This document shows, piece by piece, positions 6,649-45,800 of a stretch of DNA of 64,000 nt. The stretch comes from Amoebophrya sp. A120. Taxonomy: Eukaryota > Protista > Dinoflagellata. The position numbers and the translations under genes are program-made. Under the pieces are notes generated by a model. That model was given only the letters and a program-made list of their open reading frames with translations, was not told the origin of the DNA and ran no database searches. Positions within the stretch are counted from its first letter, which is position 1. Each line of letters begins with the position of its first letter. The stretch lies in assembly GCA_905178155.1 (NCBI GenBank), contig CAJINV010000004.1, positions 11,143,655 through 11,207,654 of the forward strand, in the 5' to 3' direction.

Positions 6649-9600
6649 TCACACGACATCCACGACATCCTCTATCGGCGTGCCATCATCTAACCCCTTG
6701 ATGTTGTTGTTCTTCGCAAAGAACTGCCCTTCCTTGCCGTTCGTAGAAGAAGTATTCGCATCTGCACCAACAACCACTTGTGCCGTAAGGTCAAACGGCT
6801 TTACGTAGCCGGACTTCGTGTAGCCCGTGGGAATCGAGTGCGTCAACAAGCGACTCAAGCCCGGCAGCGTGAACGCGATAAACGGAAAAGACAGCAACGA
6901 GTAGACCACTTTTCCCCAGAACACCTCAGCGCCCAGCTCCGAGGTGTCAAACAGCGAGGTGTCGCCGCCCCGGTTTGCGGCCAAGAGAACGACGAAAAGG
7001 ACTCCGATATGGCGTTCGCAAACGTTACACTTTCACACTGTATACATGAACTTGTGAAGATGCAAGAATTTTTATGAGCAAAAGTCGTGAGAGGGGTGGG
7101 GAGGGGGGACCTTAAGCGTCTTGCGTTACAGATTTGGCACGACGGATTCTAAATGCTAATGCTAAGTACTTAGCGCGTCAAAGACTTTTTGTTACGCGAA
7201 GAAGCTTGATCGTCATCATGTGAAGCACGACCGTTGATTTCGCATGACAAATCATGTAACAGTTGAGAACAATGTCTCGTTTGAGAATCCCATATCCGAA
7301 TAGAAAACAGTACATGTCGTACACCAGCAGCGGAAGAATGCGGCCGCCCCGCTTTGTATTGTACGTGATGCGACAACAGGGAAGAAAACTCTCCAAGTTA
7401 AAACAGCACTGCACGACCTCTTCCGCCTCCGCGTCCCTCCGGTCCGCAGCAGCGTTGGCCCGCTGCGACTGGAAACTCGACCCGCCATGCTTCTCGGAGA
7501 AGGGCAGAGACAAAAAGGCCGTCCAGGTCAGGAAAATGTTGAAGAAAAACTCGAGCAGCGACAGGGCCAGGCCGTCCGTAATGTTCTTCCCCGGGCCGCT
7601 GGCTTCGCAGTTTCTGGTTTGCACGCACGAGTAGTACTCCATGGAGCCGTAGAGCGCCATGAGCACGCCCCCCGTGACGAACTGCATTCCCTTGAAACCC
7701 AAAATGTACTGCACCAGAATGTACTCGTCCGGCCGCCTTTGACCTCTCGGGGTCCCGCAGCAAACAAAAAATAAAACCACCGCGAAGAAGAACCCCCGGA
7801 CGGCGAAGACCGGCAGCAGCGTGAGGAGGAAGAAAAGCACGAAGACCGGGTCCCGGAATTTCCCGAACATGCTCTTGTCGTACGGCAGGTAGTGGAACAA
7901 AACGAAGGCGCGGAACCAGGAGAACGGCCTCGAACGAGCCCAGAAGTCGGTACAGCTGCAGCAGACGAGGTCCACGTCGTCTCCGATGTTGGACTTTTCC
8001 GTTTTCAACACGCTCGTTTTGATGGCGAGTTTTGCCTCCTCTTTCACGTCCTCCCAAAGCCTATGGAAGTGTCAGGTTTGAAATCGTCAAAGTTGAAATA
8101 ATTTGCAATGCATAAAATGCATGCCCCGAGGTACGTGTGTTGCAGAGCAGGCAAGTGAGGCCGATTGTAAGCCTGTTTGGGGTTACAGCTCGAGCTGCTA
8201 AAGTAGCATGAGAAAATCACTCTTCTTTGCCTAAACAGCATGACAAACTGGATTTACAGACCGCCGAAATTTGTCATGCGCCACTTGGAAAATGGGTTCC
8301 AACTGGCATCCATCTTATGCATGACAAATTATTTCAACTTTGTCGATTTCAACTCTGACACATCCATAGAGCCCGTAGAACCCGTACACGAGCTTCCTCT
8401 TCACGCATTCGCACATGGCGGGGTCGTCGACCAGCGTGTTGGCAAAGCGGTCCCGGATTTTGTTCAGCAGTTTCTCCAACACGTTGTCACTCATATCCAA
8501 CGCGGTCGCTTTCTATGAACTGCAAAAGTATCGCACTCGTATAAATGCATGACAAATTCCCTCAGCATGAGAAATAAAATTTGTAATGCGGATTTACCTA
8601 AAAAAAAGAATTTGTAAGAGTGAGGTAACAAACTAAATCTGGAACTTCGCGGTTGAGTTCTCATCCGGCCGGTGGCCGGATGAGAACTCAACCACATCGC
8701 CGGCCGTATCCGGCCGGGCGGCCTGCGCCTGCCCGATCCTCTTCCGCCCTCCTCCACCGGTGGACCCACTCTTCCCCCTCACCCGTCCCCGAGCCGCGTT
8801 GCTTCGCTATGCAAAAAGCCCCACCCTTGTCATGCAAGGACAGCGGAAAGTGCCGAAACCCACAAAGCAGATGCCTGCGCTTTCATCTATTAGCTTTGAT
8901 CTGTGCTGCCATTTCCGCTCCTATTGCACGCAGTTTGCGTTTTCTATTTTTTATTTGGGAGGATTTTTCCCGCTCACCTGAAGAAGTGCACTCGCAATTC
9001 TATTTTTTATTTACGCTTCTAGGTTTGTGGCCCCTACTTCCGTCGGGGTTGGTCGATGCTCAGCTGGCTCCACCGATAGACCGCTGGCAGCGAGCGGAAA
9101 ACCGCTTAAAGCGGGAAGCCGCCGGAAGTGGGGAGCCGCTGGAAGCGGGGAACCGCTGAAAGCGAAGGAACCGCTGGAAGCGGAGAACCGCTGAAAACCG
9201 CCGACGGACCGGTGGCAGCGGGCGGCCGCTGAAACCGCGCAGCCGCTGAAAGCGGGCCACCGCTGACAGCGGGCAATAACTGAAAGCGGGCGGCCGCTGA
9301 AAGCGGCCAACCGCCGAAGGCGGAAAACCGCTGGCAGCGAGCGGACAACCGGTGAAAGCGGGGAACCCGAGCGGGCAACCGCCGAAAGCGGAGGCATGGT
9401 TCCCCGCTTTCCGCGTTTCCCCGCTTTCAGCGCTTTTATGTCCGCTCGCTGCCAAGGATTCATCGCTAGAGCCCGCTGAGACTCGACCACCCCCGACGGC
9501 AGCAGCGTGCTGTTGTCTGTCTCCCCTGCTTGTTGCCACAGGGCCCCGCATTTGGACAGAGACAGAAGCGGGCAGTCTACGCCAATAACCTAGGGCGCGC

Positions 9601-11446
9601 GAGTGCCACTATCGTGGTGCACTGGCTAAAAACGCAGGGGGCTGTGACTGCGCCCCGAAGCTGCGAGAGCCAGAACAAAAAACGAAGTAGCAGGAAGCTG
9701 ATGCCTGCTATTAACTAGTAGCAGTACCGCTGAAGTAAAGCGCAGTCGCTCCGCTTGCATGGAGTCTAACTTCTGGAAGTGCAAACTCAGAAGCACGAAT
9801 AGAAATAAGTAGGAAAAATAGAAAGCACAAACCGCGCGAAATAGTAATAGAAGCGAAAAAGAAAATAGCCGCACAGACAAAGAACAGAAAGCGCACGCGC
9901 CTGCTTTTGGGGTTTCGGCGCTTTCCGCTGCCTTTGCAGGGCGCTGCCTCTGCATTACAAAGCTGGGGCTTTTGGCCTAGTGAAACTAACAACGCGGCCA
10001 GTGGATCGACCGGTTGGGGACGGGGGAAGAGGACCGGGCCGGCCAGCCGGATTCCGCCGGTGATGTGGTTGAGTTCTCATCCGGCCGGCGGCCGGATAAG
10101 AACTCAACCGCGAAGTTCCAGATTTAGTTTGTTACCTCACTCTAATGCAGACTTGCATTTATACGAGTACGATACTTTTGCACAGGAAACTTTCAGATCT
10201 TCCACGATTCCCGCCTTTTTGTCCTTCAAGGTTTTCTTCGCGTGCAGCAGCAGGTCGCGTTCGCCCGCGGGAAGGAAACTGTACAGCTGGTCCGCCGACA
10301 TGGACTGCAGCAGCGACACCTGTTCCTTGGACATCTTGAAACCGCTGTACGCGCCCAGGCCCGCATCCAACGCGGCAGACGCCGCGGACTGGCCGAGCGA
10401 CTTCCCCTTCGCGGCCGCGGTGTCTATCCTATGCAAAAGTTGTATCGCACTCGTAATAATGGCTGGCATCGTTCGTTCGTGTGGATCGGCTCTGCCGACC
10501 GGGTAACCCATCGCCTGGCATGCATGGCAAGTCTAACTTTCTACCTTGTCCAGCATGACAAACTGCATTTTTGTTTCTGGTAAAATTCTGGTGCGATTTC
10601 TACTACAACGATACTTTTGCAATGCATAGTGTCCACCCGCTGCTGGTTTTTCTCGTTCAGATTGCTGTATGCCTTCTTCCCCACCTCCACGCCTGCAACC
10701 AGCGCGACGTCCTTTGCGGTGGCGGCCGCGCTGCTGACCACTTGCTGCGCACCGTACGCGCCACCGGCGACGAGGCCGACGGCCTTCCCCAGGTTTTTCG
10801 CGGTGGGAGCCGGCAGGGATGAGGACATCATCGTGTTTGCGTTTGGTGCGGCTTTAGAGGAGGAGTTGTTCATCATCGTGTCTACTTCACCTGTAGTTTT
10901 TGACACAGCAGCAGGAACAGAGACTTGGTGATCTTCGCAGGGTCGTTCTACTTGCGCCGCCGGGGGGGTCGGCGTGAGAGCTACTGGTCCTATAACATCT
11001 TGCTGTTGCACCAGCTGCGCCGGGTCAGTTTCACCTGCTCGTGGTAAATTTCCTGAAGCAAAACCTGGCTGGGGCACCACAACAGCGGAAGTAGGTGCTG
11101 CCGGAGCAGCAGCAGAATTCGGATTCGGCTCGCGGGAAGAATCATCTGTCGCTCCCTCCTTGTTTGCGGTTTGTTGTTCTGTGTTGTCGGAACCGTCCGC
11201 GTGTCTACTACCAGGCGGACCATTCATCGCCTTCTTGTCATTTGTAGTCGTGGTCTTCATTTGTTGGGCCGCAACTTTCATGGCCTCCTTCCCCAACGCA
11301 GCTCCAACTTTGAGAGCGCTCTGCCCGACTTTCCCCAGAGCCTTCTTCTTGTCCGCCAAGCCGCTGCCGCGGGCGGCAGAGGTCGCAGAAGTTGTCCCGC
11401 CGCGACCAGGCGGGTTCGGATCCGTCCCAGCTGTATAGCCCTCCAT
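6649..11446 (-). CDS. Multi-pass membrane protein of unknown function, 5 exons separated by 4 introner elements
   Basis: ORFs 10541-11476, 10137-10511, 8315-8500, 7178-8047 and 6649-6984 join in frame after element removal (QQRVDTAAAK, VEDLKATALD, FYGLWEDVKE, FLFGVLFVV); several hydrophobic TM segments. Confidence 0.8.
7008..7294. mobile_element. Introner (TIR element acting as intron)
   Basis: TIR tatggcgttcgcaaacg / cgtttgagaatcccata; perfect direct repeat tccga on both sides; excision restores the frame. Confidence 0.85.
8062..8368. mobile_element. Introner, long-TIR family (same family as 12693-13000, opposite orientation)
   Basis: ~55-bp TIR tatggaagtgtcaggtttgaaatcgtcaaagttgaaataatttg; flanks aagcc/gagcc; can be read as an exact GC-AG intron. 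Confidence 0.9.
8618..10142. mobile_element. Non-autonomous foldback DNA transposon nested in an introner (TAA TSD, PIF/Harbinger-like)
   Basis: ~80-bp near-perfect TIR gagtgaggtaacaaactaaatctggaacttcgcgg..., imperfect IR extending ~400 bp; TAA at 8615-8617 and 10143-10145; no convincing ORF. Confidence 0.85.
9081..9392. repeat. Tandem array of CCGCT-nnn-AGCGG mini-palindromes (~17-bp period)
   Basis: About 16 degenerate copies such as ccgctgaaagcgg, ccgctggaagcgg, ccgcttaaagcgg. Confidence 0.8.
10425..10628. mobile_element. Introner
   Basis: TIR tatcctatgcaaaagt / acttttgcaatgcata; direct repeat gtgtc; excision restores the frame. Confidence 0.85.
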
Positions 11447-12059: not shown

Positions 12060-14455
12060 CTACACCACACTCCAGAGCTTTTCCAGCGTGACTCCCTCCT
12101 TTAGTCGTTCCATCGCCAGCCCAATCTCCGCGTTGAACACGGGCTCCTGGGTGATAAAATCCTTCTCGCCGTCCGCATGGTACAGCATCGACGGCTCCAC
12201 GACGTCGTCGTTGTCTAACAGCTCAATGTCGTCCTCCTTCTGCGGCACGGGCACCGGCGGTTTGTTCGCGGCGGCAGGACCGCCGTCCTCGTTTTCTTCG
12301 TCATCCTCGGGCTTACTGATCGTGAAATCAACCCCAAAAACCGGATTCTGGGTGATATCCACGGCAAAAGCATAAGCAAAAGAAGTAAAACGTCATGTAT
12401 CCAAAATCCTGCACGACAGCGGTACTAGGGCACAATTGGAGCAGCGAGTGGAAGCGAAGTGCATCACACTCCTTACTCTTCAATATCAATTTGTATTTTT
12501 CACCAGGCCGAATTGCATATCTTGACCCTTACTCCACCAGATCTTCTTTATCCCCGTGGCAACCAAGTAGAATGCTCAGAAAGCTGTAGAGCTATACTGT
12601 CTTTCCCTATCTTTTGCGGTGCATATCTGAAAATTTTCCACAATTTTGCGATCTGCTTCCGGATTTCCTCCAGGTGCGAGACTGGGTCCGCTTATGGATG
12701 TGTCAGGTTTGAAATCGTCAAAGTTGAAATAGTTTGTCATGCATAAAACGGATACCAGTTAGACCTACAGTTTGTAGTCGGTGCATGACAAATTTTCCCG
12801 GTCCTGGAAGCGAGTCTGTCATGCGGTTTAGGGCAAAAGAGCTGCCTTCTGTCATGCTAGTTAGCAGTCCAACTTTTGACCCTTACCAGGACTATAATCT
12901 GCCTCCCGTGGGTCCTCTGCAACAGAGTCGCTTTTTGTGTCGCATTTTATGCATTACAAATTATTTCAACTTTGACGATTTCAAACCTGACGCTTCCATA
13001 CCGCTCGGAATCCGAGTATGTAGGAACCGGACCCGGGGGTCGTTTCCAACACCAGCGTATGCATTGCAAATATGTCTGGGTCTGGAAACTTGTGATGCTG
13101 GGTGGCATATCATGAGGAAGCCACAAGTGCTGCCTCTGCATGGCAAGTTTCTGGGCTTCTAGGTAGGTGTTGCCTATTCTGCATGACAAACTGCGTTTCT
13201 GCATGACAGAAGAATGGAGCTCTTGGGTAAAGTGCATGACAGATTTAAGATTCATGCCAGACAAGCATGACAAACATGCATTCTTCCAGACCCAGACATT
13301 TTTACAATCCATACAGCGCTTGTCCGAACTTGCTGTTGCGCACGTTGATGGACTTGATCTGCATGTAGGGAATCGACACGTTGAAGTTTTCGGCCAGACT
13401 CGCGAACCAGACCACGCGCACGTTGGTGATGGTGAAGGTCCCCAGGTTCCCCTGGTCGGAGGAAAGGTTCCAGATTCCCTGCACCTTCTCGTAAACCTGC
13501 TCGTTGGGGAGCAGGCACAACTCCTTGTTGCTGATGATCGCTCCGCGGAGCTTCAGGTCCCGATACAGCTTGGTGGACTCGTAGGCTTTGAAGACCGCTT
13601 GCGTGGTGGTAAACAAGCGGGGGGAGTTGCGGACCAGGGAAGTGAAAATGAACTCGAACCGGGTATTGTTGAACCGCGTCATCACGAACAGCGCCTGGGT
13701 GTTGCCACGCAGGCGGCTGTTGACCAGCTTGATGTTCACGTTGGTCACGCAGGAGAACCCGATGCTCAGATTCGTTCGCGCTGACTTCGCGGACGTCCTA
13801 TGAAATGCAAAAATGTCTGGGTCTGGAAGAATGCAGGAGTTTGTCATGCAGATTTTGCATGACCCATGAGGTCTGTGATGCATGCCCTAGCATCAGAGAT
13901 TTTGCGAGGGCGTTCTGATGCTAATACCGCATGAGAAACGCCCTCTCCGCGTAGCACAAATTACACCTCTTTTGCTGTTCGTGCAATACAGATTTTATGT
14001 AGATTCCAAAAGTGGCATCACAAGTTGTATCCTTCCAGACCACCCAGACATTTTTGCAATCCATACGTCCAGAGAATGCGCAAATTCGTCACGATCAGCA
14101 TGCCGCGATCCCCGTTGTTCCCCTTCGTGTCTTCCACCGCATTGATGCTGTCGATTTGGAAACTATGCATTTTTCTACAAGGTTGGTATCTTCGCACTGG
14201 TAGAACTAGCGAATCAAAAAAACCGCATCACAAATGTACATTTTCAGAAGGAAAGATTCAGCATGTCGTGAGAAAGCAGCAGAGCTGTCTTGATGAACTT
14301 CATGCAAGTATGTCGCGATTAGTCTAACCACGTGCACGATCCAACTTTTTCACTAGATAGAACTCGCCCTTCCGCAACTTCTGCACCTGCGGGTTCTGGT
14401 CAAATTTGATCTCCCGGTCCTGCCAGACCTCCTCAAAAGCAGGCTCGTCGGCCAT
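12060..14455 (-). CDS. BBS5: Bardet-Biedl syndrome 5 protein (BBSome), 6 exons
   Basis: Spliced product has [88 protein letters not shown]; all five introns are TAT...ATA elements. Confidence 0.96.
12356..12625. mobile_element. Introner (older, partly degenerate)
   Basis: TIR tatccacggcaaaag / cttttgcggtgcata; flanks ggtga/tctga; excision gives KIFTQNPVFG. Confidence 0.8.
12693..13000. mobile_element. Introner, long-TIR family
   Basis: ~55-bp TIR; direct repeat ccgct; excision gives GFRADP of BBS5. Confidence 0.9.
13058..13313. mobile_element. Introner, tgtctgggtctggaa family, subfamily A
   Basis: ~30-bp TIR; direct repeat cagcg; full-length similarity to 44064-44315 (same orientation) and 32200-32451 (opposite). 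Confidence 0.92.
13799..14065. mobile_element. Introner, tgtctgggtctggaa family, subfamily B
   Basis: TIR tatgaaatgcaaaaatgtctgggtctggaag; direct repeat cgtcc; similar to 36923-37184 and 32518-32779. Confidence 0.9.
14164..14359. mobile_element. Degenerate introner-derived intron
   Basis: TAT...ATA ends, flanks gaaac/gaact, internal TIR decayed; an in-frame GT-AG reading is also possible. Confidence 0.6.
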
Positions 14456-19072: not shown

Positions 19073-20395
19073 TCACGCCAGGGCTCTCCGCACGCCAAGA
19101 CCCCCCGGCGCCGTGGCCGACCTCGGGCTGCCCACCGGCACCAACGGGCGGATACGCAGGAATGCGCAGTCGGTGTCGGTGAACTCGATCTGTCCCGCAA
19201 AGGTTTATCCTATGTAAAAACGTCCCCACCCCATAGTTGTCATGCAAATCTGCATGGTAAAAATGTTTCTCATGCGGAGCCCTATGAGGAGCGTTCTCTC
19301 GTCGTGTTTTGAGATTTGTGATGCTTGAATCAGCATGCTAGGCTAGATCTGTGACGCTGCTGGGGCTTTCTAAACAGGATTATACTGCGAGGCCAAACTT
19401 GTCAGGCGCAGCAACCAAAGCTGGTGGATTTGTCTAGCAAAATTCCCATCTTGACTCTGGTGTGAGGACGTTTTTACATCGGATAAGGTTTTGGCCAAAT
19501 TCACCTCCTTCTCGGCGAGCAGCTTCATCGCCCTTTGGCGCCTCCTCTCGACCCGCTTCAAGGCATCGTCGTAGAGTCGACGGCATCAAATGCAAATATG
19601 TCTGGGTCTGGAACGACGCGAACCTGTGATGCACATTCCACAACACACAGAAATCTCTCATGCATAGGCAGTAAAAGATGCCCACTTCCTGTCACCAAAG
19701 TGGGAGATTTGTCATGCGGATTAGGCATTGCGAAACCTTCTCGAAATCTGTGATGCTGGGCTTCCATGACAGACCTTCTGTGTCATGTAAAAACAGCATG
19801 ACAAAAATCTGCAGTCTTCCAGACCCAAACATTTTTGTATTTGATAGACGGAAGACTTTGCGGCACAGGTAGGCGTTCAGACCTGTTGTACAACCAGTAA
19901 CATGCTGGAGTTTCTGCTTGCGTTTTAGAATATTCATATTCTCAATTTTGGAACCATTTTTACCGTAGATTTCGTACGCCTCTTGCACTTCTTTTTTGCA
20001 AATTCATCGACGGAACAAGCGAAGCGTCGTGCATGAGCAGAGCAGGACTAGAATGCAAAACCAAGAAATCACGTTCTTTATCAAATACCGCTATCCTTGA
20101 CCAATTTCCCGACCTCCTGTCCTATACCCCGATCTGCCGCCAGGGCCTTCATTTTTTCCAAGGAGGCCTGCACGGTCTGCAGGTGCTCGGAAATCGCCAT
20201 GTTTTCCGCCACGAGCTTCTGCATGTCCGCATTCTGCTGCTCTAAACGCTCCTTTAACAGCGTGATCACCTCCGCATTCCGCTCCTCCCGGTCTAGTAAC
20301 AGGTGCAGCTGCTCGGCGTCTGGGGGTTGGAGCTGCGCCACCCGTTGCGCCTGCTCCCGCACCTCCGCTGCAAATCCCTCGGCGGCGGAGGGCAT
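19073..20395 (-). CDS. Coiled-coil hypothetical protein, 4 exons
   Basis: Exon 20395-20089, GT-AG intron 20088-19883, then two introners; spliced DSGLNAYLCRKVFRRLYDDALKR...AKTFAGQIEF. Confidence 0.75.
19206..19485. mobile_element. Introner
   Basis: TIR tatcctatgtaaaaacgtcc / ggacgtttttacatcggata; direct repeat aggtt. Confidence 0.88.
19584..19846. mobile_element. Introner, tgtctgggtctggaa family
   Basis: TIR catcaaatgcaaatatgtctgggtctggaa / ttccagacccaaacatttttgtatttgata; direct repeat gacgg. Confidence 0.88.
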
Positions 20396-27869: not shown

Positions 27870-30272
27870 TCATGCTCCTTGGGCCGACGTCACCACATCT
27901 TTCAGAATCTTATCCCATTCTGCGTCTTTCAAATCCTCCACAATGCGCATCATGACAGCGTTAAACTTCCGCTGTTCTCGCACATGCTCGTTCTTATCGT
28001 TCTCCCGGATGAAGATGTCCCGATCCTCGATCACGTCAGCAGCATCAGCATCACCAGAGCCGTCAAGCGGTACTAACATCGCCAAAAAATCGTCCGCGAA
28101 GATTCCCGTCCTTTCACGGACCGCTTTGGCCATGAACATACTGATCATGCTCGCACGGAAGACACAGTCAAATTTCATCAGCTTGTAGTCTTCCCAACAC
28201 TGCTTCCACGAATAATCGGGCGGCGATGAAAGCGGCGGAGCTGCAACGCTCTTGCTTTCTTGTTTCTCGACCTGCAAGTTCGTGTTCCTTGATGAAGCCT
28301 GGAAGATGTCCTCCGCAGCCCATCTGCGCACCAATTCGTCGTGATACGACCGCACAATCTTCTCCTCCTCGTTCCTTCGGTCCTCTCTAGTTAAGCCCGT
28401 CCCAAGCAAGCAGGCCAAATCGCGGACGCCCGGCTGCAGCTGCACATTTTGAAAGTCGATGTAGACGTTGGACTCTTTCCTTTCGTTGTAAAACATGTTT
28501 TCCGCGTGGAAGTCCCCGTGCCACAGTGTGACCGGGATGCTCTTCCACTTTTCGAAAAACGCATCCCAGTAAGAACTATTTTTCGGCCGATTATTTGCGC
28601 CGCCGGGAGACTCGTCAACACCGTGTTGGCTTTGCCCCTGCTCTCCCACCTCTGGTGCAGGTGGCGCTAGCATCGGGTTCCAGATCTTCTCCTCGAACCA
28701 GAGCCAGTACTCGCGGAAGCCACGAAGGTAGCTGTCGTAGACGACAGTTTTTCTCGACTTGCTGGAGGACGGGCTTCCGCTTGCTGCAGCCTTGTTCATT
28801 TGTTCGTCCTCGCTGGTACAGTCTGCTTCCGCGAAGAGGTCCAACCTACTGTCTCGTCCACGACCCAGCACCGCGTTCACCCCCTTGCTTTTTCCGAACA
28901 TCTCCACGCCGGCCCTCATATCAAATGCAAAAATGTCTGGCTCTGGAAGAATGCAAGTTTGTCATGCTTGTCTGGCATGACTCGAGGACCTGTGTTGCAT
29001 AGGCACGACAGGGCCCTCTTGCCTGTCATGCAAAAACGCAGGGTGCCATGCGGAATACGTAAGAGAGACATGGCAGCCAAAAAATTTGTCGTGCATAGCT
29101 GCGTATTGCAGTGCGTCTATCATTCATTTTTCGCATTACAAGTTTTCAGACCCAGACATATTTGCAATCCATACTTCATCACGTTTTGCAAGAAGCCCTT
29201 CATCATTTCCACCCGGTTTGGGTCCGAGAGGTGCTGTGCAAAAGTATCGCACTCGTATAAATGCAGGTCTTGCATTACAAATTTCTTTGTCAAGGCAAAT
29301 CAGCATTACAAACTTTATTTTTCATGCTGAGAAAATTTGTAATGCATTTATACGAGTACGATACTTTTGCAGTTCATACGAAAGGTGCGGCAGCAGTTTC
29401 GTGCGCTCGTCGGCCTTGTACCGCTCGTACGACCAGCCGAAAAAGGGCGCTTGCAAGGCTGCTAGGTCCTTGGCGGCGCGGTAGGCGTGGGGGAGCGGCA
29501 GAACTTTTGTTAATATGGTGCTCGATGGGGATGGTCCGGGTCCTGCTGTTGAAGGTGTTGTTGACAAATGGTCGCCATTCCGAATTCCTTCTCCAAGAAT
29601 GGGCTCCATCAGAATCAGAAAACGGGGAGTGCTGAAAGGAGTAGGAGAGGCACCGTCTGGAGGAGGCAGCGGCTGCTTTCCGTCTTCCTCCTGAGGTCCG
29701 GCAGCAAAATAGAATTTGGGTGTTGGAAAATCCACACCTTCTCGACCACTGAAGTCAACATTTGCAGCTAGTAGCACGGTATTGATGAATCGAACTTCCG
29801 AGGTCCACATCATCTTGGCGCTTTGCACCGGCACGTTCAGATCGGACGGAAACATCTTCACGAAGAAAGACGCGGGCGGTGGCGGGGATGACGCAGCGAC
29901 AGCGGGGGGTAAGGGTACTGCTCCTGGTCTTGCAGCAGACACCGCCGTAGACGTAGTGGCGCCACGACTTGATGAAGACGCTCTGCCGCAACACGAAGTA
30001 GTAGTTTTGGTTTGGTTCTCCTCCTCCTGCCCACCGCTCGCTTCTCCTGCAAAGACGACTGCGCCATCGTACTCTACCTTTTCTAGCACAGCTTTGTCTC
30101 CCAGAAGGCCTCTATCTCGCCCAAGCTTCCGCATTTCGAAGGACCGGACCGTGGCTGTGCTGGGTAAGACGCCCGCATGGTGGAGCACACGCGTTAGCAA
30201 CCCGGGGGAAACCTCGTCGAGTGTGGCCGGAAGGTCGAATGGGAGCGGGTCGGGCTCTTGTTGTGCCGACAT
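27870..30272 (-). CDS. EcKinase / APH-choline-kinase-like phosphotransferase, 3 exons
   Basis: FFVK, EVRF, LILME, TLWHGDFHAENMF (Brenner motif), YIDFQ, RDLA; two introners removed in frame (LPHLSDPNR, NVMKAGVE). Confidence 0.85.
28919..29173. mobile_element. Introner, tgtctgggtctggaa family
   Basis: TIR tatcaaatgcaaaaatgtctgg; flanks cctca/cttca; can be read as an exact GT-AG intron. Confidence 0.88.
29230..29378. mobile_element. Introner (~150-bp family), empty-site relative of 8514-10189
   Basis: TIR core tgcaaaagtatcgcactcgtataaatgca; flanks cgaga/cgaaa. Confidence 0.85.
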
Positions 30273-31904: not shown

Positions 31905-34900
31905 TCACTCGAACTGCGCCCTCCCATTCGCTTTTCTGGAGGATCCAAATTTCGCTCTATTCGATTTTTTTGCGAGCCCGGACCCGAACTGAATGGCCCG
32001 TTTGTCCAGTTTTGCACAGGTGGGCAATTTCAGAACTTTGTCGGCAATGTACCTCAGCAGCATCTTATCTGGCCCTGCGGCCGGGACTTCGTTTTCTTGC
32101 ACCAGCTCACTTACCAGCTGCACCACATCCTCATCCAGAAATGGGTGTCTGGGTTCCCTGCCGTGGTCAGCCAACACCCGATCGTCGCGACCCAGGTTCT
32201 ATCAAATGTAAAAATGTCTGGGTCTGGAAGAATGCATGTTTGTCATGCTTGTCTGGCATGACTCTTGAATCTGTCATGCACATTACCCAAGAGCCCCATC
32301 TTTCTGTGATGCAGAAACGCAGTTTGTCATGCAGAATAAGCAACACCTAGAGGCTCAGAAACTTGTCATGCTGATCCAGCATTTGTGGCCTCATCATGAG
32401 ACGCCACCCAGCATCACAAGTTTCCAGACCCAGACATTTTTACATTTGATAGGTTCCGGGTCCAAAAGCGCTCCAGGTCTTTCCGAAGCTCGTCGTACAT
32501 CGCTCTCTTCCCGTGAGTATCAAATGTAAAAGTGTCTGGGTCTGGAAGATTAGAACTTGTCATGCTAAATCCGAATGATGCAAAAATCTGTGTTGCGTGA
32601 GTACCAAAAGCTGTCCGCTTTTGACCAAGTTGAGAGGGAGTTTCTCATGCAGGAAAGGCATGATAGAGACCCCAAAAAATCTGTCATGCTGGGTCTCGCA
32701 TTCCAGACCTCATGGGTCATGGAAAACCTGCATCACAAATCTTGCATTCTTCCAGACCCAGACATTTTTACAGTTGATAGTGAGTCAAAAACTGGGAAAC
32801 GTGTCGTGCGTAACCGCCGAAGAGCTCATCCGCCCCGTGACCGACCAGGAGGACCTTGTTTATTCTCGACCCATCTTCTTTACCTTCGTGATGACATTGG
32901 AATTCTTGTCTGGAAGTACCAGACTCAGGGGCAGTTCTAGTAGCGGTGTCAGGCTGTCGCCGCCCACGATCACAAAGGCGCCAGTGGTCTCGATACACAG
33001 AGCAGTCGATGCCAGATGTTGCTATAGGGTCATCCTCGTGTTCATCTCGTGTAACGCGAACGGCAGCTTCCGGGCGCGCTCCGGGTTGGAGCATCGTCGG
33101 CTCGTCGGTCAGTGACGCCCCAACTACTAGATCGGCAGGAGCATTGTCCCCTCCGTCTATCATTTTCTGTTCGTAACAAGGCCACGCTTCCGGGAATTCC
33201 GCCAGTACTCTCTCCTTCAGTTTCTCTTTTCTCGCGTTTTCGCCCGGTCGCTTCTCGTCCGGCAACAGCTGCGCCGCCTGAGCAAATAACGTGTGCCAAT
33301 GCGGGAAGAGTTCGTCTGAGTCGGGAAGGGAATAGCAATGCCTCGTTGTGTTTTTCTTTTCCTCTTCTGCCTTCCGACTTGACGGCGCTGGCGGTCCTCG
33401 CGCATCGGGTCTGCTTGCCGCCTGCCACAGGCACATCCCTATGTTGTAGTCCATGTGAGTATTGTGACTAGGCCCCAGCAAGGCCTTCACGTGTCTGGTA
33501 TCGTCGACGCTACAGGTGAGATCAGAGGAAGAGCTTTTATGGGTCATGAGATCTCTCCCATCTTCCTCTTCATCTCCTTCAGCCAAATCCATCAGCACGA
33601 GGTCAAACTTCCCGCCAGCAGCACCCGGGTTATCATGATTCCTTCGCGCCTTCAGATCCCGGAAGCTCAGCAAGCAGGTCACGCGGTCCGGGGAGTTTGT
33701 CGGGCTGTAGGAGACGTTCACCAGCCGGACCTTCTTTACGTAGTCCGCAGCCAGCGCCGCGAGCACGGTGGAGTCCAACCCTCCGCTGAAGAGTACAGTC
33801 ACTTCCTCGTGAAACTGGACCCGTTTGCGGACGGCATTGCGCAGTGCAGTTTCCAGACGAGCGGCCGCGGTCTGAAAGGGCGATCGGGTTGATAGTGTTG
33901 GACGAGGACGAACCGATGCGGAGTCACTAGAAAGCGCTGGCCGTGGTGCAGGAAGGGCACAACAAGAGCCACTCTTCGTCCGCAATGCCTCTCGCAGATT
34001 GTGGAACGGGCTGGAGAGCGCGGGGTGAAATCGTTCGCGAAATTCGAAAGGCACGAAAGGAGGGCTTGGGCTCGCAAGGCGTTCCTTTCCATTTCCATTT
34101 TCAAAGGTGCTTTTCGTGGCGACTACGTGGCCGCTGTCATTGTTCTCGGCGTAGTTTATTCCATGGCTTTTTCCATTCTGTATGATCAGCGCACCACTAC
34201 AGGGAATTTCGGCGTGAAGCAGAACTTTATCGCTGGCTCCGTCACCTGGCAGCGGCAACACACTTCCGACCAGAATCGTCGTCCTCATTCTTGTGTTGCC
34301 TTGCGTGTCTGCATCGTGAGTTCTTTCCCCAGCACATTTGATGTTCTCGAGATCATCAAAATACTTGCTGCACCCGATCCTCCCAGTCCGTACTTGCACA
34401 CAGAGACTTCGGCGTCCCAAGCCGTCCCGCATGCAGAAAAGCCGCTGTCGCCTTTCACAGTAGTGGAGGAACGCAAACGGCCCTTGGATTCTTTCCAGAA
34501 TTTGTTTCTGAAGCAGCTCGTCGAAGAGCCGGCCTTTTTGCTCCTCTGTCGTTGATGAAGCATCAGAAGCAACGTTGTTCCTGAGCTCCACAATTCTTTT
34601 GCTCAGCCATGTTGTGTCCGAAATCTCGTTTGCGAATAGCGTTGCGTCTAGAGTGTTGATTTTTGCACCGGCACTTCCACGTTCAACATCAGAGGGGGTA
34701 GATTCTGTTGCTCCTTTGAGTTTCCGTGCGGGGATCATCTCCTGCTGCTCGTTCTGATGTTCACCGGCCTCATCATGCAGCCCAAAGATCTCTCCATTGA
34801 AGGCAAACCAACTTCCGTCTTTATTTCTTGTAGTACACACGGGCACTGTAGAGCAGCTGTTTCGTCGTCCCAGGAGCTGGTCCTCCGCATCACCCACAAA

Positions 34901-35904: not shown

Positions 35905-35976
35905 ACTCAACAGACCCTGAAATCTGATCCTCGGACTCAACAGACCCTGAAGTTGGACCGAAATCTGATCCTCGGA
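35905..35976. repeat. Short tandem duplication (~30-bp unit)
   Basis: actcaacagaccctgaa..atctgatcctcgg occurs twice, the second copy with an insertion. Confidence 0.7.
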
Positions 35977-36314: not shown

Positions 36315-39300
36315 TCAGTAGTAATCGTTGTGCGTAATGGGTCTTCGCATGCCGTCGGTGTCCTCCCGGAACTCTCGCAAGAACTGCTTCCCGATGTCCT
36401 TCGCCGCCAGCCACTGCCGGTGCATGTCGGCCTCCCGCTGAAAGTAGATTTTGCGTATCAGCTCAAATAGCCCACTGTCCTCCATCTCCTTCGCGGCCTC
36501 GGGCACTGCCTTCGCGACGTTTCTCAAAGTGAACAGCACGGTGGTCACCACAGAAGCGTTGTTCTGTAGATTTTTGCAACATGATTTTCATCTGTCGGCA
36601 CAAGCTACACAACGCTCGTGCACAAGCACAAGAACGACCTGGTACCGCCCATAGGTGGAATCTTCATCCCCAGAAACGATTCTACCACATGCATCTGAAG
36701 ACACGACGACCATGCTGAAATACTAAGTCCAAACGTTGAACAACCCTTGATAGTATTACAACGCAAGAAGAAGTACCTGGTATTCCGCCAGCACCAGCAG
36801 TCCCATCGCTGCGATCCGCATGGGGTCCGCGTTCAGCGTTTCGCAGATCTGCGGTTTTCTCAAGGTCAGGTTACTGAACAGGCCGAACGCCTGCTCCACA
36901 ATCGCCGTGCACTTGGTGTACTTATCAAATGTAAAAATGTCTGGGTCTGGAAGAGTGACAGACTTGTCATGCAGGTTTTCCATGACCCATGAGGCCTGGT
37001 ATGTAGGACATAGCATGACAGATTCTGCGTTAGGTCTATCATGCCTATCCTGCATGAGAAACTGCCTCTCGATTAGGTCAAAAGTGGAAAGCTTTTGGTA
37101 ATCACGCAACACAGATTTTTACATGATGCAGATTTAGCATGACAAGTTGCATTTTTCCAGACCCAGACATTTTTACATTTGATAGTACTTCCGCAGTACC
37201 AACATGGCGGTTTTCGTGATCTCCGCGTCCGTGTTGGTAAACAGTATAGAAGGAGAAATGGTGATCGCCGACAGTGATCATCTACCAAAGAAAAATCGCA
37301 GCACACCCTCGCGGAGCGGGTTTGTTTTTTAACGGACCGAAAAAATGGCGCAGCTTTTCGCAGAGTGTGGCAGTGTTCACTGCGCACATTATGCGAGCAG
37401 TGCATGCCGGAGATGGGAAAGGCCGACAATGGCCGGACGCTTTGGGGGCCCCAGGTGCTTAGTGTTAGTTTTCATGGTTGCTGGACGCATGAAACCACTC
37501 TTCCCGTCTGGCCACGAGCGCCCACGCGTTTTGGTCGTCGAGCGCTCTTACCTCGGCCGGGGCGCGGCGCTTGAAGAGGGTCGGGGCCATAGCGTAGAGC
37601 CGGTTCGTTTGGAATGCCATCCCCCGCCTGGTTCGGGCCCGGCTCTGTGCCTCGACCTTGCCCGCCTGCCGCGAATGCGTCAAGGCATCGACGGGCCGGG
37701 GGCCCGGTTCACACACTTCAATCCGATGACGGCTGGCTTTTGCGTGCCGCCAAGGGCAGCAAATACACGGAGCCGGCGGAGAAGCGGCTCCGATACGTAC
37801 TAGCAACAAGCAACGGAGGCCATGCCGTCGGTTCTTAATTTGCACCGACGGCACGACGCAGTTTGGTGAAGAGAAAGAACGCGGCGCGACTTTCGCGCCC
37901 CGGCTTCAACATGAAGACGGCGAGGCACCTTGCTGCACGGCCGCGGCAGCTCCTGCGGCGAGTCTCTCATAGTCGGCGCAGGCACGGACCGCGATAGACA
38001 CTCGCTATGCCATCACGCAGGGCCCCGGCCTAGCGCCTGCCAAGAGAGAACAAAGAAAAGGAAAAGCAGCGCCGCCAAATATATATAAACTTCACCCGGC
38101 GACGAAGCGCATGCCACGCCCGGCGCAGCCGCGGAGCCGGCTCACCTGAGAAGAGCGCAGAACCCCCAAAGCAGCCACAGCGCTGCACCGCCTCGAGCCT
38201 GGCTGCCAGTTCCTGCACCGGCCTCGGGCCCTAACTGTGGGCGGCTGCCCCACTTGTAATTTGCAGGCCCAGCCTGGAGCCAGGGCTTCCGGGCCTTCAA
38301 GGAACTGGCGCAGAGCATACTATAGCAAGGCGTTGCTTCTTCATCTTCTTCGACAACGTGCTGCATTTCTCTCAAAGAAACGCGTTGTCGGAAATGAGTG
38401 TCGGAAGACTACAGAAAAACACTGATCTAAATGAGAGTCGAATCACTGATCATGAAACAAAAAGACCCTAGTTGAATGCTGATCATCAAACGACTTTTTT
38501 GATTTGATGATCACCTTTGTTAGCTCGTGGTAATGCTGATCATCAAACGATTTTTTTGATTTGATGATCAGCATTCAACTAGGGTCTTTCTTTCTTTCTT
38601 TCTTTCAATGCCAGGGCATGGCGTCAATTGTTCGAGACCCCAGGGCACTAGGGTCTTTTTTTTTCATGATCAGTGATTCGACTCTCATTTAGATCAGTGT
38701 TTTTCTGTGATCTCATTAGATCAGTGGCGGTTTTCGTGATCTCCGCGTCCGTGTTGGTAAACAGGTCCTTCATGTGGTCGGAAAACGCGAATTGACGCAG
38801 CACGAACAGACACGCGCGCACAATGCTCTGGTGCCCGTAGGACAGCGTGTCCTTGATCAGGGGCAGCACGTTGTCCTCGAACACGAACTTGTGGATGCGC
38901 TCCTGGTGGCACCCGACCTCCTTCATCAGCAGCAACACTCCCTCCAGCCGGTACCACTGATCAGGAGACATGGGGGATTTTTTCGGCTGCTCCGGCAGTT
39001 CGGCAGAACTGCTACTGGAAGTAGCATTATGTGCTGTCTGCTCACCACCGAGATTTTCCTTTTCCAGGTTGTCGTCGATGCTCTGTTTCATGCTCCGAAA
39101 CGAGCGGACGATGATTTCCCTCACCCGCGGGAACCTTTCGCGGTCACACACGTAGTCCCGGTTTTCGACGGCAGACGGCACCATCGACTCCCCGCCGCGG
39201 CTGTCGTCGTCCGTGACAATGGACCGCAGCGCCCAGATGCCCTGGGTTTGCACCTTCGCGCTTTCAGAGAGGTATTCCAGGATTTCTAGGAGCAGGTCGA

Positions 39301-40634: not shown

Positions 40635-42886
40635 TATTTTTTTACGTCGGAGGTTTGCGTACTTTTTTACCAAAATATATTAGGCAGGTGCTGTACGTGA
40701 ACGCGCACTAATAGTACCCGCAGCGAAAAATGATCTGCAGCTGCTTTAACCATATTCATGATGAACAGCAACAGACTGGAAAGCAATGTTTTTTCGTTCC
40801 AAACAACAAAGAACAAACTGATAATTGACCTGGTAATACGTAGCAAAATAGGAACTTTGACTTTCTTTTTTCGCTATGATGCAGCCTAAGTTGCATCCAA
40901 CTCGACGACGCTCCATTCATTCGTAGAAAATGGCGCCCCTTTCGCGCTGCTCAATCTCATGCTATTGTGCTGGTTTTTTCTCGTCCGGTGAACTCTATTA
41001 CAACATCTTTTGCAAAGTAGTTCTGCCTCGTCTACAGAAAGTAACTGGGTTGTTGCAATAAATGCTGACGAACAACGACAGAACGGCCGCTCTCACTCTC
41101 TAATCAGTTATCGTGACGGGCTTGTTCCTTCACGACACAACCTGCCCTCCAACGGAGCTCAGCGGCTGAGTGTAGTTAGACTCTTCCATTTAGAAATTTT
41201 TTGTGATTCATTTTTATACGTGGATTTCTTTCATTGTACAAAATAACCGACAGAGGTGGAGCAAATTATCACCAAATTTGTGCACAGTGAGATGAAAAAG
41301 CTGACATCAAGCAGTAGCGGAAGCACATGTGAACTAAATAAAATAAATGTTAAGTGATTCTTAATACGTGTCATCAAAATGGAAGTGTGATTGTGAAAAG
41401 GTAAATTTTCTATCGCATTCATTATGCAGTAGACCAGCGAAAATGCATGGCTTGCATTTGTAAAAGTTAAAGTGTATACAGCACAAACTTTGCGTATAGA
41501 AAATGAAAAATAAATCAATCAGTAGTAAGCAGCACAGATTGCAGCACCGGTCGTGTCTAATCAATCTAAATCTTTCACTACAGCATGCGCATGAGATAAC
41601 TCAACATGCGACACTGCATTGGACAATGTGGCGCAGAAGCAACCACCAACGATCACCTTCAATCATGCACAATTGTATTTAGCGGTAATAAATGAAAACA
41701 AAGCAACGATTCATATTTGTTCCATTTCGAACTTGGAGGGTCTGGTACAGCTTTCGCTATTCGCCTTTGCTTCAGCGTCTATCGAATAAAGGATTCGCTT
41801 TTTTTTTGCTGCGTTGTAAAATGAAGGAACAGCAACCTGTTGCACATCAGGTTTAGCCGCCCGAAGGCAGGAGTCACCACATAGTACCAACCACGTCAAA
41901 TCCTGAATTTCCCTTGCCCCGGCCTGTTGCTTTGCTTCAGGAGTTTCATCTCTCTCGGATTTGGATGCAGCGGAACTCCCTGCGCGGGGGGTTGCTGCGG
42001 AAATGGCCCAATATCTTCTTCTGCAACCGGGACTGTTGCTATCCACAGAAAATCAATGTCAATTGTTCTTTTCCCGTGCGCATGCAAATCATGTTGACAG
42101 GCCGAATGCATGAAAAGGGCTGCAAGGCTCTTCTACAGCTTCTCCTCAACAGTACACAGACACTACAACATCCAGTACCTGGATTTGGTCTATTTTTGAC
42201 GCCTGCTGCGGCTATGTCTATGCGTGATCGCTCCTGCAGCTTCTGTGCGCGTTCGTGTATCTGTATCTATGGTATTTGTATTCGACAAAATTGACATTGG
42301 AATTTTTTTTGCATAGGTGCGATCCTGTTCCAGTGGTGGTGCAGTGGGTGGCCGGGCTTGGTTCGGTGGTGCGGCGAGGAGGCGCGGAGCTTCTCCAGGT
42401 TGTCTCGGGCCTTCGGCGAGTCCCACTCGATATCCGTGCTCGGGACCGGGGAGGACCGCTCCGAGACTATCTCCACGATCTCTTGCTCGACAACTTTCTC
42501 TTCCTCCGACCCACTGCTGAACAGGTTGAAGACGTCGAAGCCACCGAGCAAACCACGCTTTTTCTTCTGGCCCTCGCGGGGGCTGGACGGTTCAGAGGAG
42601 CTGGGATCCAATTCGGAGGCAATTTTGCTGTAGTTTGAATTTGATGTTTGTAGTACAACCATCTGACATGCAGTTTCGTTTCCTCAAGCACATGTTGTAC
42701 TTTCGCAGCAACTCGGCGAGAGAGACCGGTGATCCGCATAAAAACTAAAAAGAAGTTGGGCGGGAACGAACCAACAAACTGGACTCGAATGTTGTAGATG
42801 AAATATGTGAAATATCGGAAATGCTCCATGTCTGGCCCAAAGTCACTTCGGGGGCAACATACAGTATACAGATTGAAGCATCGGCA

Positions 42887-45800
42887 TCAAAATATAAAAC
42901 TGTACTTTTTCTCCTTCGCATCCTGTACTAATACCACGGTGGCCCATATGGTGACGCCTAGAATCAGAGCCGCGCCGCTGCCAACCAGCACCACGCCCCA
43001 CCACGGTAGCCCGAGGAACTCCCACTCCGGCTCCGGCACGGGCGCCTTCGTGCTCGTCGTCGTCGTGGTTGGCAAGAGGATCACGCCCACCGACGGCGCG
43101 GTGTTCGTCGCGCTGGCCCGCGCCTCGCTGATGGTGAACCCTGTAATCGTCGGATCGTTGGCCACGGCGGTCTGCACGGACGTGAGCAGTGCGCTCAGCT
43201 CCGCATCGGTCTCCAGGGTCATGGTCTGCGCCTTGGCGGACGCGGCCTCGGGCGTGGCGAAGCCCTTCAACCTGTAGTCGAATTCTACCGGTTTTGGCAC
43301 GTTGTGCGACAGCAAACGACTGCGAGTCGTTTCTGCATCCTCCTGGCTTACTTTCTTGTTTCCCGCAAGCTGCAAATGACGCGGCTCCAGTGCGCCAGAG
43401 CTTGTGTAAGCCACTGGTGCTGGTGTTGACGATGACAAAACCAAAAGTCGTTCTTTTTCTTCAGTTTCCTCTACGCCTTGCGCTGTTGACAATTTCCTCT
43501 GTAAAACCTGTTGATTCCGACCATTAGCATGGTCGTGCAGCTTTTGGTGTACTAGCTCTACTTGTGGAACAGCATGACCACCTGGAGATGTTGATGATGT
43601 TCTTACGTCCCGCGGGTCCCAGCGCTCTATAGTTTCAATGTCGACAGCTGCACTACTGGCACTGCTTCGAAGATGGTTAGACCTGGTTGCCTTCTCATTC
43701 TCCACCTCGGCTGCCCCTTGCTGTTTTTTTTGTCCTCGTCCCCCGTCTGCACCAGCAAGCTGCACAGCAGAATTGGCTTCTTCTACTCCACCACGACCTA
43801 TCAGTGACCGCCTGCGTTCTGTGATAAACCGCATTGCTATTATCTCGATCAGTGCGGGTACCACGCCGAGAAAGTCTGCCAAGCCCGTCTGCAACGCGGG
43901 CCCCAGCGAGCTGATCAGCTGCGCCTCCGTGGTGCCCTGTGGAATTGTCATGACCAACTGCGCGGACGCCTCCACGCTGTAGCCCTCCACGGTGGCTGCG
44001 TCGACGTTGGCCACAGCCTCGCTGACGCCGAAGGGGAGAGCCGTGTAGGTCGACGTGGTGGTGTATCAAGTGGAAAAATGTCTGGGTCTGGAAACTTGTG
44101 ATGCTGGGTGGCGTCTCATGATGAGGCCACAAGTGCTGGCTCAGCATGACAAGTTTCTGAGCTTCTAGGTGTTGCCTATTCTGCATGACAGACTGCGTTT
44201 CTGCATCACAGAAAAGCGGAGCTCTTGGGTAACGTGCATGTCAGATTTAAGAGTCATGCCAGACAAGCATGACAAACATGCATTCCTTCAGACCCAGACA
44301 TTTTTGCAATTCATATGGTGGTCGTGGTGGACGTGAGCGTCACCGTCGTACTGGTCGACGTCGTTGTCGTCGTGCTGGTAACCGTGATGGTGGTGCTCGA
44401 CGTTGTCGTGGTGGTTGAGGTCACAAGGACGGTTTCATTCGTCAGGTTCGTCCCGTTTGCTGATCCGTTCAGAGGACCGAAGAAAACCCCCATAATATCA
44501 TCAACATCGTCGTCGATGACAAGCAGAATTGCACTGTCGTTACTGACATTCTGCGTGCCGTTCGATGTTGCTCCCGTACCATTTGGAGCGCCTGACCCCG
44601 CGTCTATATCGTCGTCAAACGCGACAGAGCTGGCGGTGGTTTCGTTGGAGCCGTTTTGAGAGGACGCTGGCGCGGTAAAATTCGAGTCATCCTCTTCGTT
44701 GAGCACGTCGTTCCAATTGTAGGAGACTTTCGTCTGGTTCATGCATTGCAAAAGAATCGTCCAAGTCTAGTAAGTCGCACGTAAACATAAAAAAGGTCTT
44801 TGTTATGATGCGGGTTCAGAGAAAGATGAAGCAGATCTATTGCCATGTTGCAACTACACCCTTGGCAGTTCATACGAGTTGTACGATACTTTTGCAATGG
44901 ATATGGTTCACCAGTGTGCAGTTGGAGGAATTATCACTCGTATTCGTGTCGTTGCTGCAGTTGCTACCCGGCAAAAAGTCGAGCACGTAGGAAACCTCTG
45001 GCGCCGGCGTCGTCGTCGTTATGGTCGTGGTGGACGTCGAGGTCGTGCTGGTCGTCACGGTTGTGGTGGTGGTGGAGGTGCTCGTGGTTGTGCTCGTCGA
45101 GGTGGTCGTGCTGGTAGTGGTCGTGGTGGAAGTTGTGGTGGAGGTTGTCGTCGTCGTCGTGGTATTCACTGCCTCGGCGCTAGACGACGAGGTGCTCGCT
45201 GCTGTCGTGGCGAACGCGGAAACAAAATCGTTCCGTTCCAGCTCCCCCTGGTGGTAGCCCCCGGTGACGTGCGGGGGCCGCTCGTAGTTGCACACTATGT
45301 CCACCGGCTGACACGTAATCGCCCCCGTGATTTGCGTGTTCGAGAAGCCGGTCGGCGTGGTGCCGGCAAGAAGCACGTTGGAGTTCGCCACGAGGCTTGT
45401 GACGCCAGTACTCGTGTCCTTGCGGCAAATGCCGATCTGCGCCAGCGTACCCTGGTAATTGTAGTCGAATCCGGTAATTTGCGGCTGGAGAATGTCGGGG
45501 GAAATTCCATACACCGTGTACTCCGTCGTGTTGTAGTACGGATTCGAGCCGCAATCCGTGTGGTAACACACGGGAACCGCGGTGCTGCTACTGGGCACGG
45601 AAAAAACCCCGACACCCGCTGTAGTGGTGCGCAGAAGTTTTTCTTTTTACTGAGCATGAATTCAGTTATACATGAATGAATCAAGTGTGAACAATCATCT
45701 CATGATGAGATGATGAATCTTCACGATCACATTATTTTTTCAAAACACGACCTGGTCTCTTATCCTTCAATGGTAAAAAAAAGTGCAAATTCGTCAGGCG

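Follow-up and report, generated by a model that had tools for sequence, protein, structure and literature searches.

A probable shared cut register at the inverted-repeat ends of transposon-derived noncanonical introns in Amoebophrya sp. A120

The window, a 64,000-nucleotide stretch of contig CAJINV010000004.1 (assembly GCA_905178155.1), contains 21 elements that are transposon-derived noncanonical introns (introner elements) of Amoebophrya A120, as described by Farhat et al. (2021, PMC7789003). Their borders appear to share a common register, in which the intron reads N-TAT...ATA-NNNN and extends from 1 nucleotide before the left arm to 4 nucleotides after the right arm (Table 1). The phenomenon itself is already published in that paper, whose accessible part is also a precedent for borders that are linked to a hairpin and independent of dinucleotides. 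Our finding rediscovers a known system, and its contribution is a one-line rule for the position of the cut. We consider it probable that these introns follow a single hidden code that does not constrain the first or last base and is preferred over perfect GT-AG pairs. The “unprecedented diversity” of their ends would then be that of random target sequence, processed by a remodeled spliceosome or another enzyme that dispenses with U1 snRNA.

Two exons of the window match proteins of Amoebophrya sp. A120 at 100% identity, which places the window in this genome. The available text of Farhat et al. describes TAT-ended inverted repeats with seven variable bases and an A run, direct repeats of 3–5 nucleotides at the borders, and RNA-supported non-GT-AG ends in A120 that are intermixed with canonical introns and explained by a hairpin model; it reports that no transposase was found for these elements in A120. 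The window elements likewise carry TAT, seven variable bases, and an A run at both inverted ends, as well as a direct repeat within this length range that overlaps the borders, and they are absent from transcripts with non-GT-AG borders. The repeat is 5 nucleotides long, perfect in 13 elements and with 1–2 mismatches in the other 8. T, A, and T at +2 to +4 are found in 21, 20, and 21 elements, and A at +12 to +14 in 18, 18, and 21, although the TAT/ATA conservation within the window is partly due to ascertainment. An A at −7, a candidate branch site, is present in all 21 elements and mirrors the 5′ arm. Several elements have arms in common, as expected for a repeated family. A pair scan (TAT/ATA-type ends, at least 13/20 arm matches, at least 4/5 repeat matches) returned 16 pairs from the real window versus 0–1 from each of 30 block shuffles, and an Rfam search of the window gave no matches. 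The coordinates and coding-strand repeats that a first-pass annotation, made from the sequence alone, had given for ten elements are all confirmed.

Table 1. Elements and host gene in the window, with the evidence for each junction
Feature	Positions	Strand	Arms	Repeat, evidence, and remarks
Introner intron 7008	7004..7295	-	7008-7294	TCGGA; AT-GG ends in shared register; no AG register
Introner intron 8062	8058..8369	-	8062-8368	Repeat position 5 mismatched; length sum 369
Introner intron 8514, 1681 nt	8510..10190	-		Degenerate 5′ arm; nested inverted-repeat element; length sum 369
Introner intron 10425	10421..10629	-	10425-10628	Length sum 369
BBS5 gene, five elements inside	12060..14455	-		Pfam PF07289
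Introner intron 12356	12352..12626	-	12356-12625	TCAGA/TCACC; register exactly 4
Introner intron 12693	12689..13001	-	12693-13000	Length sum 113; P0001
Introner intron 13058	13054..13314	-	13058-13313	CGCTG; length sum 113; P0001
Introner intron 13799	13795..14066	-	13799-14065	Contig piece end 13792, as predicted by exact removal; P0001
Degenerate introner intron 14164	14160..14360	-	14164-14359	No predicted stem; P0001 only
Introner intron 19206	19202..19486	-	19206-19485	AACCT; one-sided contig end 19199; junction peptide in A120 protein P0121
Introner intron 19584	19580..19847	-	19584-19846	CCGTC; junction peptide in P0121 only
Introner intron 28919	28915..29174	-	28919-29173	RNA joint 28913/29174; registers 4-5
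Introner intron 29230	29226..29379	-	29230-29378	Outer 7 bp of stem unpaired; RNA joint 29224/29379; registers 2-5
Introner intron 32200	32196..32452	-	32200-32451	RNA joint 32193/32451
Introner intron 32518	32514..32780	-	32518-32779	CTCAC; RNA joint 32512/32780
Introner intron 36923	36919..37185	-	36923-37184	RNA joint 36917/37185, 267 nt; contig depth 111-233
Introner intron 42040	42036..42316	-	42040-42315	RNA joint 42034/42316; registers 4-5; AG-ending register (1) unused
Introner intron 44064	44060..44316	-	44064-44315	CACCA; RNA joint 44058/44316
Introner intron 44740	44736..44904	-	44740-44903	AACCA; RNA joint 44734/44904
Introner intron 46511	46507..46673	-	46511-46672	Weak stem; RNA joint 46505/46673; registers 2-5
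Introner intron 57397	57393..57694	-	57397-57693	ORF restoration only

Transcript contigs lack the element plus exactly 5 nucleotides for at least 10 of the 21 elements by a direct joint and for 6 more (13058, 12693, 12356, 10425, 8514, and 8062) by summed lengths (sums of 113 and 369). Such joints are present at all nine elements between 28500 and 46900, with as many as four runs of a single sample showing them; at 7008, adjoining pieces of a single X3 contig leave out 292 nucleotides between them. Four further elements agree with annotated proteins: 13799 and 19206, which are each backed by one contig end, and 14164 and 19584, from the proteins only. After exact removal, ORFs run from stop to stop over 785, 372, 670, 986, 1065, and 1924 codons, and the BBS5 gene, freed of its five elements, equals the annotated A120 protein P0001 at 357/357 residues. 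The RNA comes from runs X3–X6 of one sample, labeled only “RNA?”; it is represented by contigs, in which minor forms are dropped, and may not be independent of the A120 annotation. We treat it as spliced RNA because canonical introns are absent too and the depth at 9242–9698 is zero. From the same part of these contigs, six canonical GT-AG introns have also been spliced out, in line with the earlier observation of such introns in the same genes, and five of these six RNA-confirmed donors read GTAC or GTAT. The raw RNA runs X10 and X11 contribute 2 reads each and are uninformative. The description of the hosts as intact conserved genes holds for BBS5 and for the asparagine-synthase-like, kinase-like, and peptidase M8 genes, whereas 14 of the 18 ORF pieces have no Pfam match.

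The elements lack the GT/GC-AG ends of U2-type introns. Sliding the excision through the repeat and its chance extension yields no AG-ending register at 7008, 12356, 13058, 19206, 19584, 32518, 44064, and 44740, as the first-pass annotation had read, nor at 46511, which brings the total to 9 of 21. Its observation that the GT-AG reading at the repeat shifts the frame is reproduced at 12693 (311 versus 313 nucleotides) and 36923 (268 versus 267 nucleotides). The more general claim, that the borders are not set by GT, GC, or AG dinucleotides, is likewise borne out, and no cryptic canonical pair was found in use. At 29230, the AG register obtained by sliding lies outside the registers that its RNA joint permits.

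Elements with mismatched repeats had been proposed as a test of the junction in transcripts, and they point to a single shared register, 4, in the seven informative elements. The registers allowed are 4 for 12356; 4 and 5 for 28919 and 42040; 0–4 for 8062; and 2–5 for 29230, 46511, and 14164. Register 4 alone fits all seven, whereas each other register has 2–6 conflicts; a 7/7 fit to register 4 is expected by chance in 0.5% of cases, or in a few percent if any of the six registers is allowed, and the result covers seven elements in one RNA sample. The upper bound is given by 8062, where a contig piece ends at 8057 and excludes register 5, and by 12356, where a contig piece ends at 12351 and Ser-261 of P0001 is obtained with register 4 only, that is, by contig piece ends and P0001 and not by direct joints. 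According to the accessible text of Farhat et al., the position of the splice sites with respect to the hairpin varies and the border is unknown, and their Fig. 3 draws a variable border; here, in contrast, the mismatched repeats indicate a single register, and homology between the repeats plays no part. A fixed register is stated in no paper found by our literature search, although Figs. 3 and S19–S25 of Farhat et al., or other publications, might show it. In the part of their Table S4 available, T occupies +2 in 9/9 top A120 noncanonical motifs, a ranking that aligner preference could have caused.

Terminal stems, predicted to span from +2 to −5 of the intron, have z < −3 in 15 of 20 folded elements, and the predicted end duplex is below −30 kcal/mol in 14 of 21. 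Element 14164 has no predicted stem, 46511 shows a pairing of 0.3–0.4, and 29230 is without the outer 7 pairs; all three are removed. Stems as stable as those predicted for most elements would make both the donor and the −7 A inaccessible, an observation that speaks against a relaxed spliceosome and that would suit a structure-reading enzyme equally.

Related copies are found at 147 loci of a public assembly (156 arm matches). A far arm was located for 116 distinct elements, of which 5 ill-formed ones were dropped by a filter that touched the terminal three bases, leaving 111 (110 scored); a codon model gives a confident strand for 70. The copies come without RNA, and none overlaps the window over 330 nucleotides. 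A 5-nucleotide target duplication is perfect in 96 of the 111 copies, and a flush 6-nucleotide one occurs in none, so that terminal inverted repeats (TIRs) are combined with a target duplication of fixed length, as in TIR DNA transposons. Among the 70 stranded copies, neither G at +1 (22/70) nor an AG end (7/70) is enriched, and 33 lack any AG register. Pairing of the arms at positions 4, 5, and 7 does not exceed independence (0.65/0.67, 0.69/0.70, and 0.38/0.41; n = 111), whereas position 10 pairs above it (0.64 versus 0.50). One copy (L063) has a 91% match to an A120 protein with Asn at the junction, which requires a register of at least 3 if this homolog, as opposed to L063's own transcript, is taken as a guide; a protein search with the double-mismatch copy L075 gave no matches.

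In the first-pass annotation, the stem was proposed to set the borders by juxtaposing the direct repeats. A link between the junction and the inverted-repeat ends is supported, but such a juxtaposition of repeats is not: at 12356 the junction has a mismatched repeat position on either side, at 28919 and 42040 it bypasses the longer stretch of repeat identity, and 46511, 29230, and 14164 are removed despite weak or absent predicted stems. A junction placed anywhere within stem-aligned repeats, as in that proposal and the variable border of Farhat et al., is improbable given the 7/7 fit to one register and the mismatches on both sides at 12356. The register-4 product is also not what template switching predicts. 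Hairpins with short direct repeats are described as a setting in which reverse transcriptase jumps, and all of our evidence is cDNA-derived, but a conserved BBS5 protein requires all five removals, joined contigs have the same depth as across canonical introns, the junctions at 12356, 28919, and 42040 fall outside the longer run of matches, and weak-stem elements are removed too; we regard such an artefact as highly improbable. Least probable of all, and largely refuted, is a reading in which the introns are canonical through the use of cryptic GT/GC/GA-AG pairs close by. Each of the 21 elements has 2–32 in-frame candidate pairs within 30 nucleotides, some of equal length, but none of the ten direct joints uses one, the summed lengths and annotated proteins fit exact removal, and GT-AG falls in the shared register at 28919 only. 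In-frame GT-AG alternatives remain unused at 8514 and 13799 (+3 nucleotides each) and at 14164 (same length); the one at 8514 would break the sum of 369, and that at 14164 would give Asp-31, where P0001 and 20/20 aligned proteins have Glu.

Ciliate IESs are transposon-like inserts in coding sequence that are precisely removed. Comparable excision from DNA in some life stage, also raised by the first-pass annotation, would suit the TA-type ends and transposon anatomy, yet it is disfavored and very unlikely. Genomic contigs of one run (X1) keep the elements, spanning exon-element borders or containing whole elements (12356 and 14164) at a depth of 25.8–28.5, compared with ∼29–34 for single-copy bins, so that, unlike IESs, the elements are not absent from this DNA; the joints listed for this run are dominated by those that link copies of the family. 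Moreover, the product keeps one 5-nucleotide repeat and not TA, contigs without elements also lack canonical introns, and the register appears asymmetric relative to transcription. We favor, with some reservation, RNA splicing at the fixed register by a spliceosome that has lost its requirement for the initial G and the terminal AG. A less likely though real possibility is that the same removal is carried out by a machine that is nonspliceosomal or has been extensively remodeled and that gauges its cuts from the terminal stem, in keeping with a proposal for the nonconventional introns of Euglena. Strong predicted stems and a fixed offset (+2, −5) resembling the Euglena code as far as it is described, the free end dinucleotides, and the U1 snRNA not found by Farhat et al. 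argue for such a machine; removal of 14164, 46511, and 29230 despite absent, weak, or partial stems and the lack of covariation at arm positions 4, 5, and 7 argue against it. So do the nearly complete A120 spliceosome proteins in the accessible text of PMC7789003, including U2AF65, U2AF35, PRP8, and U1 proteins in Table S6.

The elements probably originated by insertion of a TIR DNA transposon with a 5-nucleotide target duplication. Because the junction joins 4 repeat bases from upstream to 1 from downstream, a single repeat would be restored and the encoded protein preserved at any target site. The arm ends may serve as signals: the 5′ N-TAT would imitate the GTAC/GTAT donors of this genome at +2 to +4, and the pyrimidine tract and the branch site could be provided by a run of T at −15 to −19 and by the A at −7, respectively. 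The 3′ cut would be measured from the arm, and the stem would assist without being required. Mirror-image arms would allow a copy to be spliced in either orientation. If the rule applies genome-wide, tens of thousands of ambiguous borders become defined substrates that can be annotated correctly, the place to seek branch points or circles is given, and insertion of the transposon anywhere and in either orientation with an unchanged protein is explained. Splicing of most A120 introns without detectable U1 snRNA then becomes directly testable.

The nonconventional introns of Euglena, described in the accessible part of Nomura et al. (2025, PMC12501133) as the majority class there, resemble the A120 elements in lacking GT-AG and in ends that pair, by prediction in most A120 elements, at a set distance from the junctions. 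Their signature N3CDG...CHG N5-6/R is absent here, where T occupies +4 in 21/21 elements and the first exon base is a purine in 11/21. The introners of Fritillaria borealis (bioRxiv 10.1101/2025.08.15.670264; PMC11282704), as far as these sources describe them, also derive from TIR transposons with target duplications and escape GT-AG; they are reported as spliceosomal, a precedent for the favored relaxed spliceosome. Their TIR ends give recurrent dinucleotides (AG-AC and AG-AT) and U2AF is duplicated, whereas in A120 the base at +1 and the last four bases are target-derived and free. Like MITEs and introners generally, as outlined in PMC12130899, the A120 elements are short, repeated, TIR-bounded, and flanked by a target duplication of fixed length (5 nucleotides).

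Scans and reading of the window yielded 21 introner elements, named here by the start of their left arm, all within minus-strand genes or transcripts. A 5-nt direct repeat directly abuts every element on both sides; it is perfect at 13 elements and carries one or two mismatches at 8. A strict element pattern occurs 16 times, compared with 0–1 times per shuffle (30 shuffles). When exact excision was slid through the repeats, the eight elements singled out in the first-pass annotation as lacking an AG-ending register did lack one, as does 46511, and the GT-AG readings at 12693 and 36923 caused the frameshifts described there. Host ORFs proved otherwise intact, as had been stated: exact removal restores long ORFs and, for BBS5, gives the annotated protein with every residue matching.

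Over 159 residues, the BBS5 exon matches an Amoebophrya sp. A120 protein at 100% identity (A25 protein, 91%), and another exon is 100% identical to a second A120 protein. For A120, Farhat et al. (2021, PMC7789003) report >60% non-canonical introns and introners whose inverted repeats start with TAT, followed by seven variable bases and an A run, and whose borders carry 3–5-nt direct repeats; a hairpin model is proposed for exon joining. The 21 elements agree with this description, compared column by column, and are therefore a rediscovery: the introner system in the window is real, confirmed, and already known.

Positions of features in the window
Feature	Position	Strand	Observation
BBS5 exon	13317-13793	-	
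Exon of second A120 protein	20120-20395		
Intron of 12356	12352-12626		two repeat mismatches make ends AT-AC
Intron of 28919	28915-29174		lone repeat mismatch turns it GT-AG in the shared register
Element nested in 8514	~8615-10146		1.5 kb; own inverted ends
Tandem array in nested element	9076-9390		17-nt unit
Peptidase M8 (leishmanolysin-like) gene	42906-48900		long; threonine-rich repeats; three introners, several canonical introns
Exact 40-nt direct repeat	37205-37244 and 38725-38764		flanks 1.5-kb insert in coding gene
Separate contig of 1.5-kb insert	37268-38440		depth 20
Nested hairpins at one insert end	38406-38713		

The elements are removed exactly, and canonical pairs are not used. 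Across 28500-46900, four sets of putative RNA contigs, all from one sample, gave 15 listed joints; nine correspond to the nine elements, each skipping the element plus 5 nt, and six are GT-AG introns, in line with the claim that canonical introns lie alongside. A 4325-nt contig on 6500-20200 skips 292 nt at 7008; it also has gaps of 113 nt and 369 nt, the exact sums for 13058, 12693, and 12356 and for 10425, 8514, and 8062, respectively. The annotated A120 protein that spans 19206 and 19584 contains both of their junction peptides exactly. In-frame GT/GC/GA-AG pairs lie within 30 nt of every element (2–32 each), and use of such cryptic pairs, the outcome named earlier as contradictory, was seen in none of the transcript contigs. 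At 8514 and 13799, a GT-AG alternative that keeps the frame would add one codon and is inconsistent with the contig, and a same-length GT-AG at 14164 would give Asp where the BBS5 protein and 20/20 aligned proteins have Glu. One transcript contig (6500-13792) crosses BBS5 and the next gene downstream, which may reflect overlapping UTRs or read-through.

The contigs of one sequencing run (X1) were read as DNA because they keep canonical introns. They contain the elements at a depth of 25.8–28.5 versus ∼29–34 in single-copy bins; with 498 joint rows beyond those listed, a minor excised form could still be present.

We defined k as the number of repeat bases contributed by the upstream copy. RNA restricts k to 4 at 12356, to 4–5 at 28919 and 42040, to 2–5 at 29230 and 46511, and to 0–4 at 8062; the BBS5 protein allows only 4 at 12356 and 2–5 at 14164. 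The check on mismatched repeats suggested earlier thus leaves k = 4 as the sole conflict-free register over seven elements, based on contigs from one sample and with the bound k ≤ 4 set by two elements. The intron therefore reads N-TAT...ATA-NNNN, where the initial N and the four terminal bases derive from the target. Position +1 is C in 8, G in 7, A in 5, and T in 1 of the 21 elements, the last bases are mixed, and a single element is GT-AG in this register; at 42040, the RNA joint excludes the AG-ending register. Element 28919 is possibly a step toward a canonical intron. In PMC7789003, Table S4 has T at +2 in 9/9 top A120 motifs and a TT start in 9/9 A25 motifs, which agrees with the register, yet may stem from aligner preference and strand handling; the Fig. 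3 legend calls splice sites variable and the border unknown. The literature searched, which covered the key papers and figures in part, yielded no statement of a fixed register. Such a register makes the open splicing mechanism testable.

We infer that the elements are of transposon origin and that their removal is an RNA-level reaction. As to the machinery, our leading guess would be a spliceosome of relaxed U2 type: N-TAT agrees at +2 to +4 with 5/6 local canonical donors, and the 3' arm contains a T run and, at -7, an A that never varies, both candidate signals. Farhat et al. (PMC7789003) list U2AF, PRP8, and U1 proteins among nearly all spliceosomal proteins for A120, with no detectable U1 snRNA, and Fritillaria introners offer a precedent (bioRxiv 10.1101/2025.08.15.670264; PMC11282704).

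The main rival would be a stem-measuring machine, by analogy with that proposed for Euglena (PMC12501133). Strong terminal stems are predicted for most elements, and the six canonical introns lack one (predicted end duplex, -3 to -11 kcal/mol). By the same prediction, 14164 has no stem, 46511 pairs at 0.3–0.4, and 29230 lacks the outer seven pairs; 46511 and 29230 are nevertheless removed according to RNA joints and 14164 according to annotation. Because weak- and no-stem elements are removed too, the proposal that stems set the boundaries stands insofar as arm ends mark the cut, whereas a perfect stem is not demonstrably needed. The idea that the stem brings the direct repeats together is not supported at 12356, whose junction has a repeat mismatch on both sides; neither repeat pairing nor template switching predicts it.

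A pattern scan of contigs from one public assembly gave 147 related loci; the assembly is closely related to A120, with one exon matching an A120 protein at 91% identity. Well-formed elements numbered 111/116, with a perfect 5-nt duplication in 96/111 and a flush 6-nt duplication in 0/111. Among 70 copies with an inferred coding strand, 22 have G at +1, 7 a terminal AG, 7 a GT/GC/GA-AG register, and 33 no AG register; end dinucleotides look unselected. Arm pairing at variable positions 4, 5, and 7 is not above independence, and at position 10 somewhat above (0.64 versus 0.50). Arm positions 4–7 show a few fixed variants in free left/right combination, which suggests exchange of ends between copies.

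In the window, TGCATG and TGTCATG motifs on either strand reach ∼6.7/kb in elements versus 0.1–0.3 in exons and 0–1.5 in canonical introns, and are possibly transposase or RNA-binding-protein sites. The 8514 introner, 1681 nt with its nested element, is nevertheless removed exactly; the nested element apparently duplicated TAA at its insertion, and its two internal ORFs had no Pfam match. Deleting the 1.5-kb insert and one 40-nt copy restores the frame of the coding gene. Transcript contigs stop at the 40-nt repeat, with depths of 168 and 218 on its two sides in one of the guessed RNA sets (X3), and the insert end opposite the hairpins resembles a TAT-type arm.
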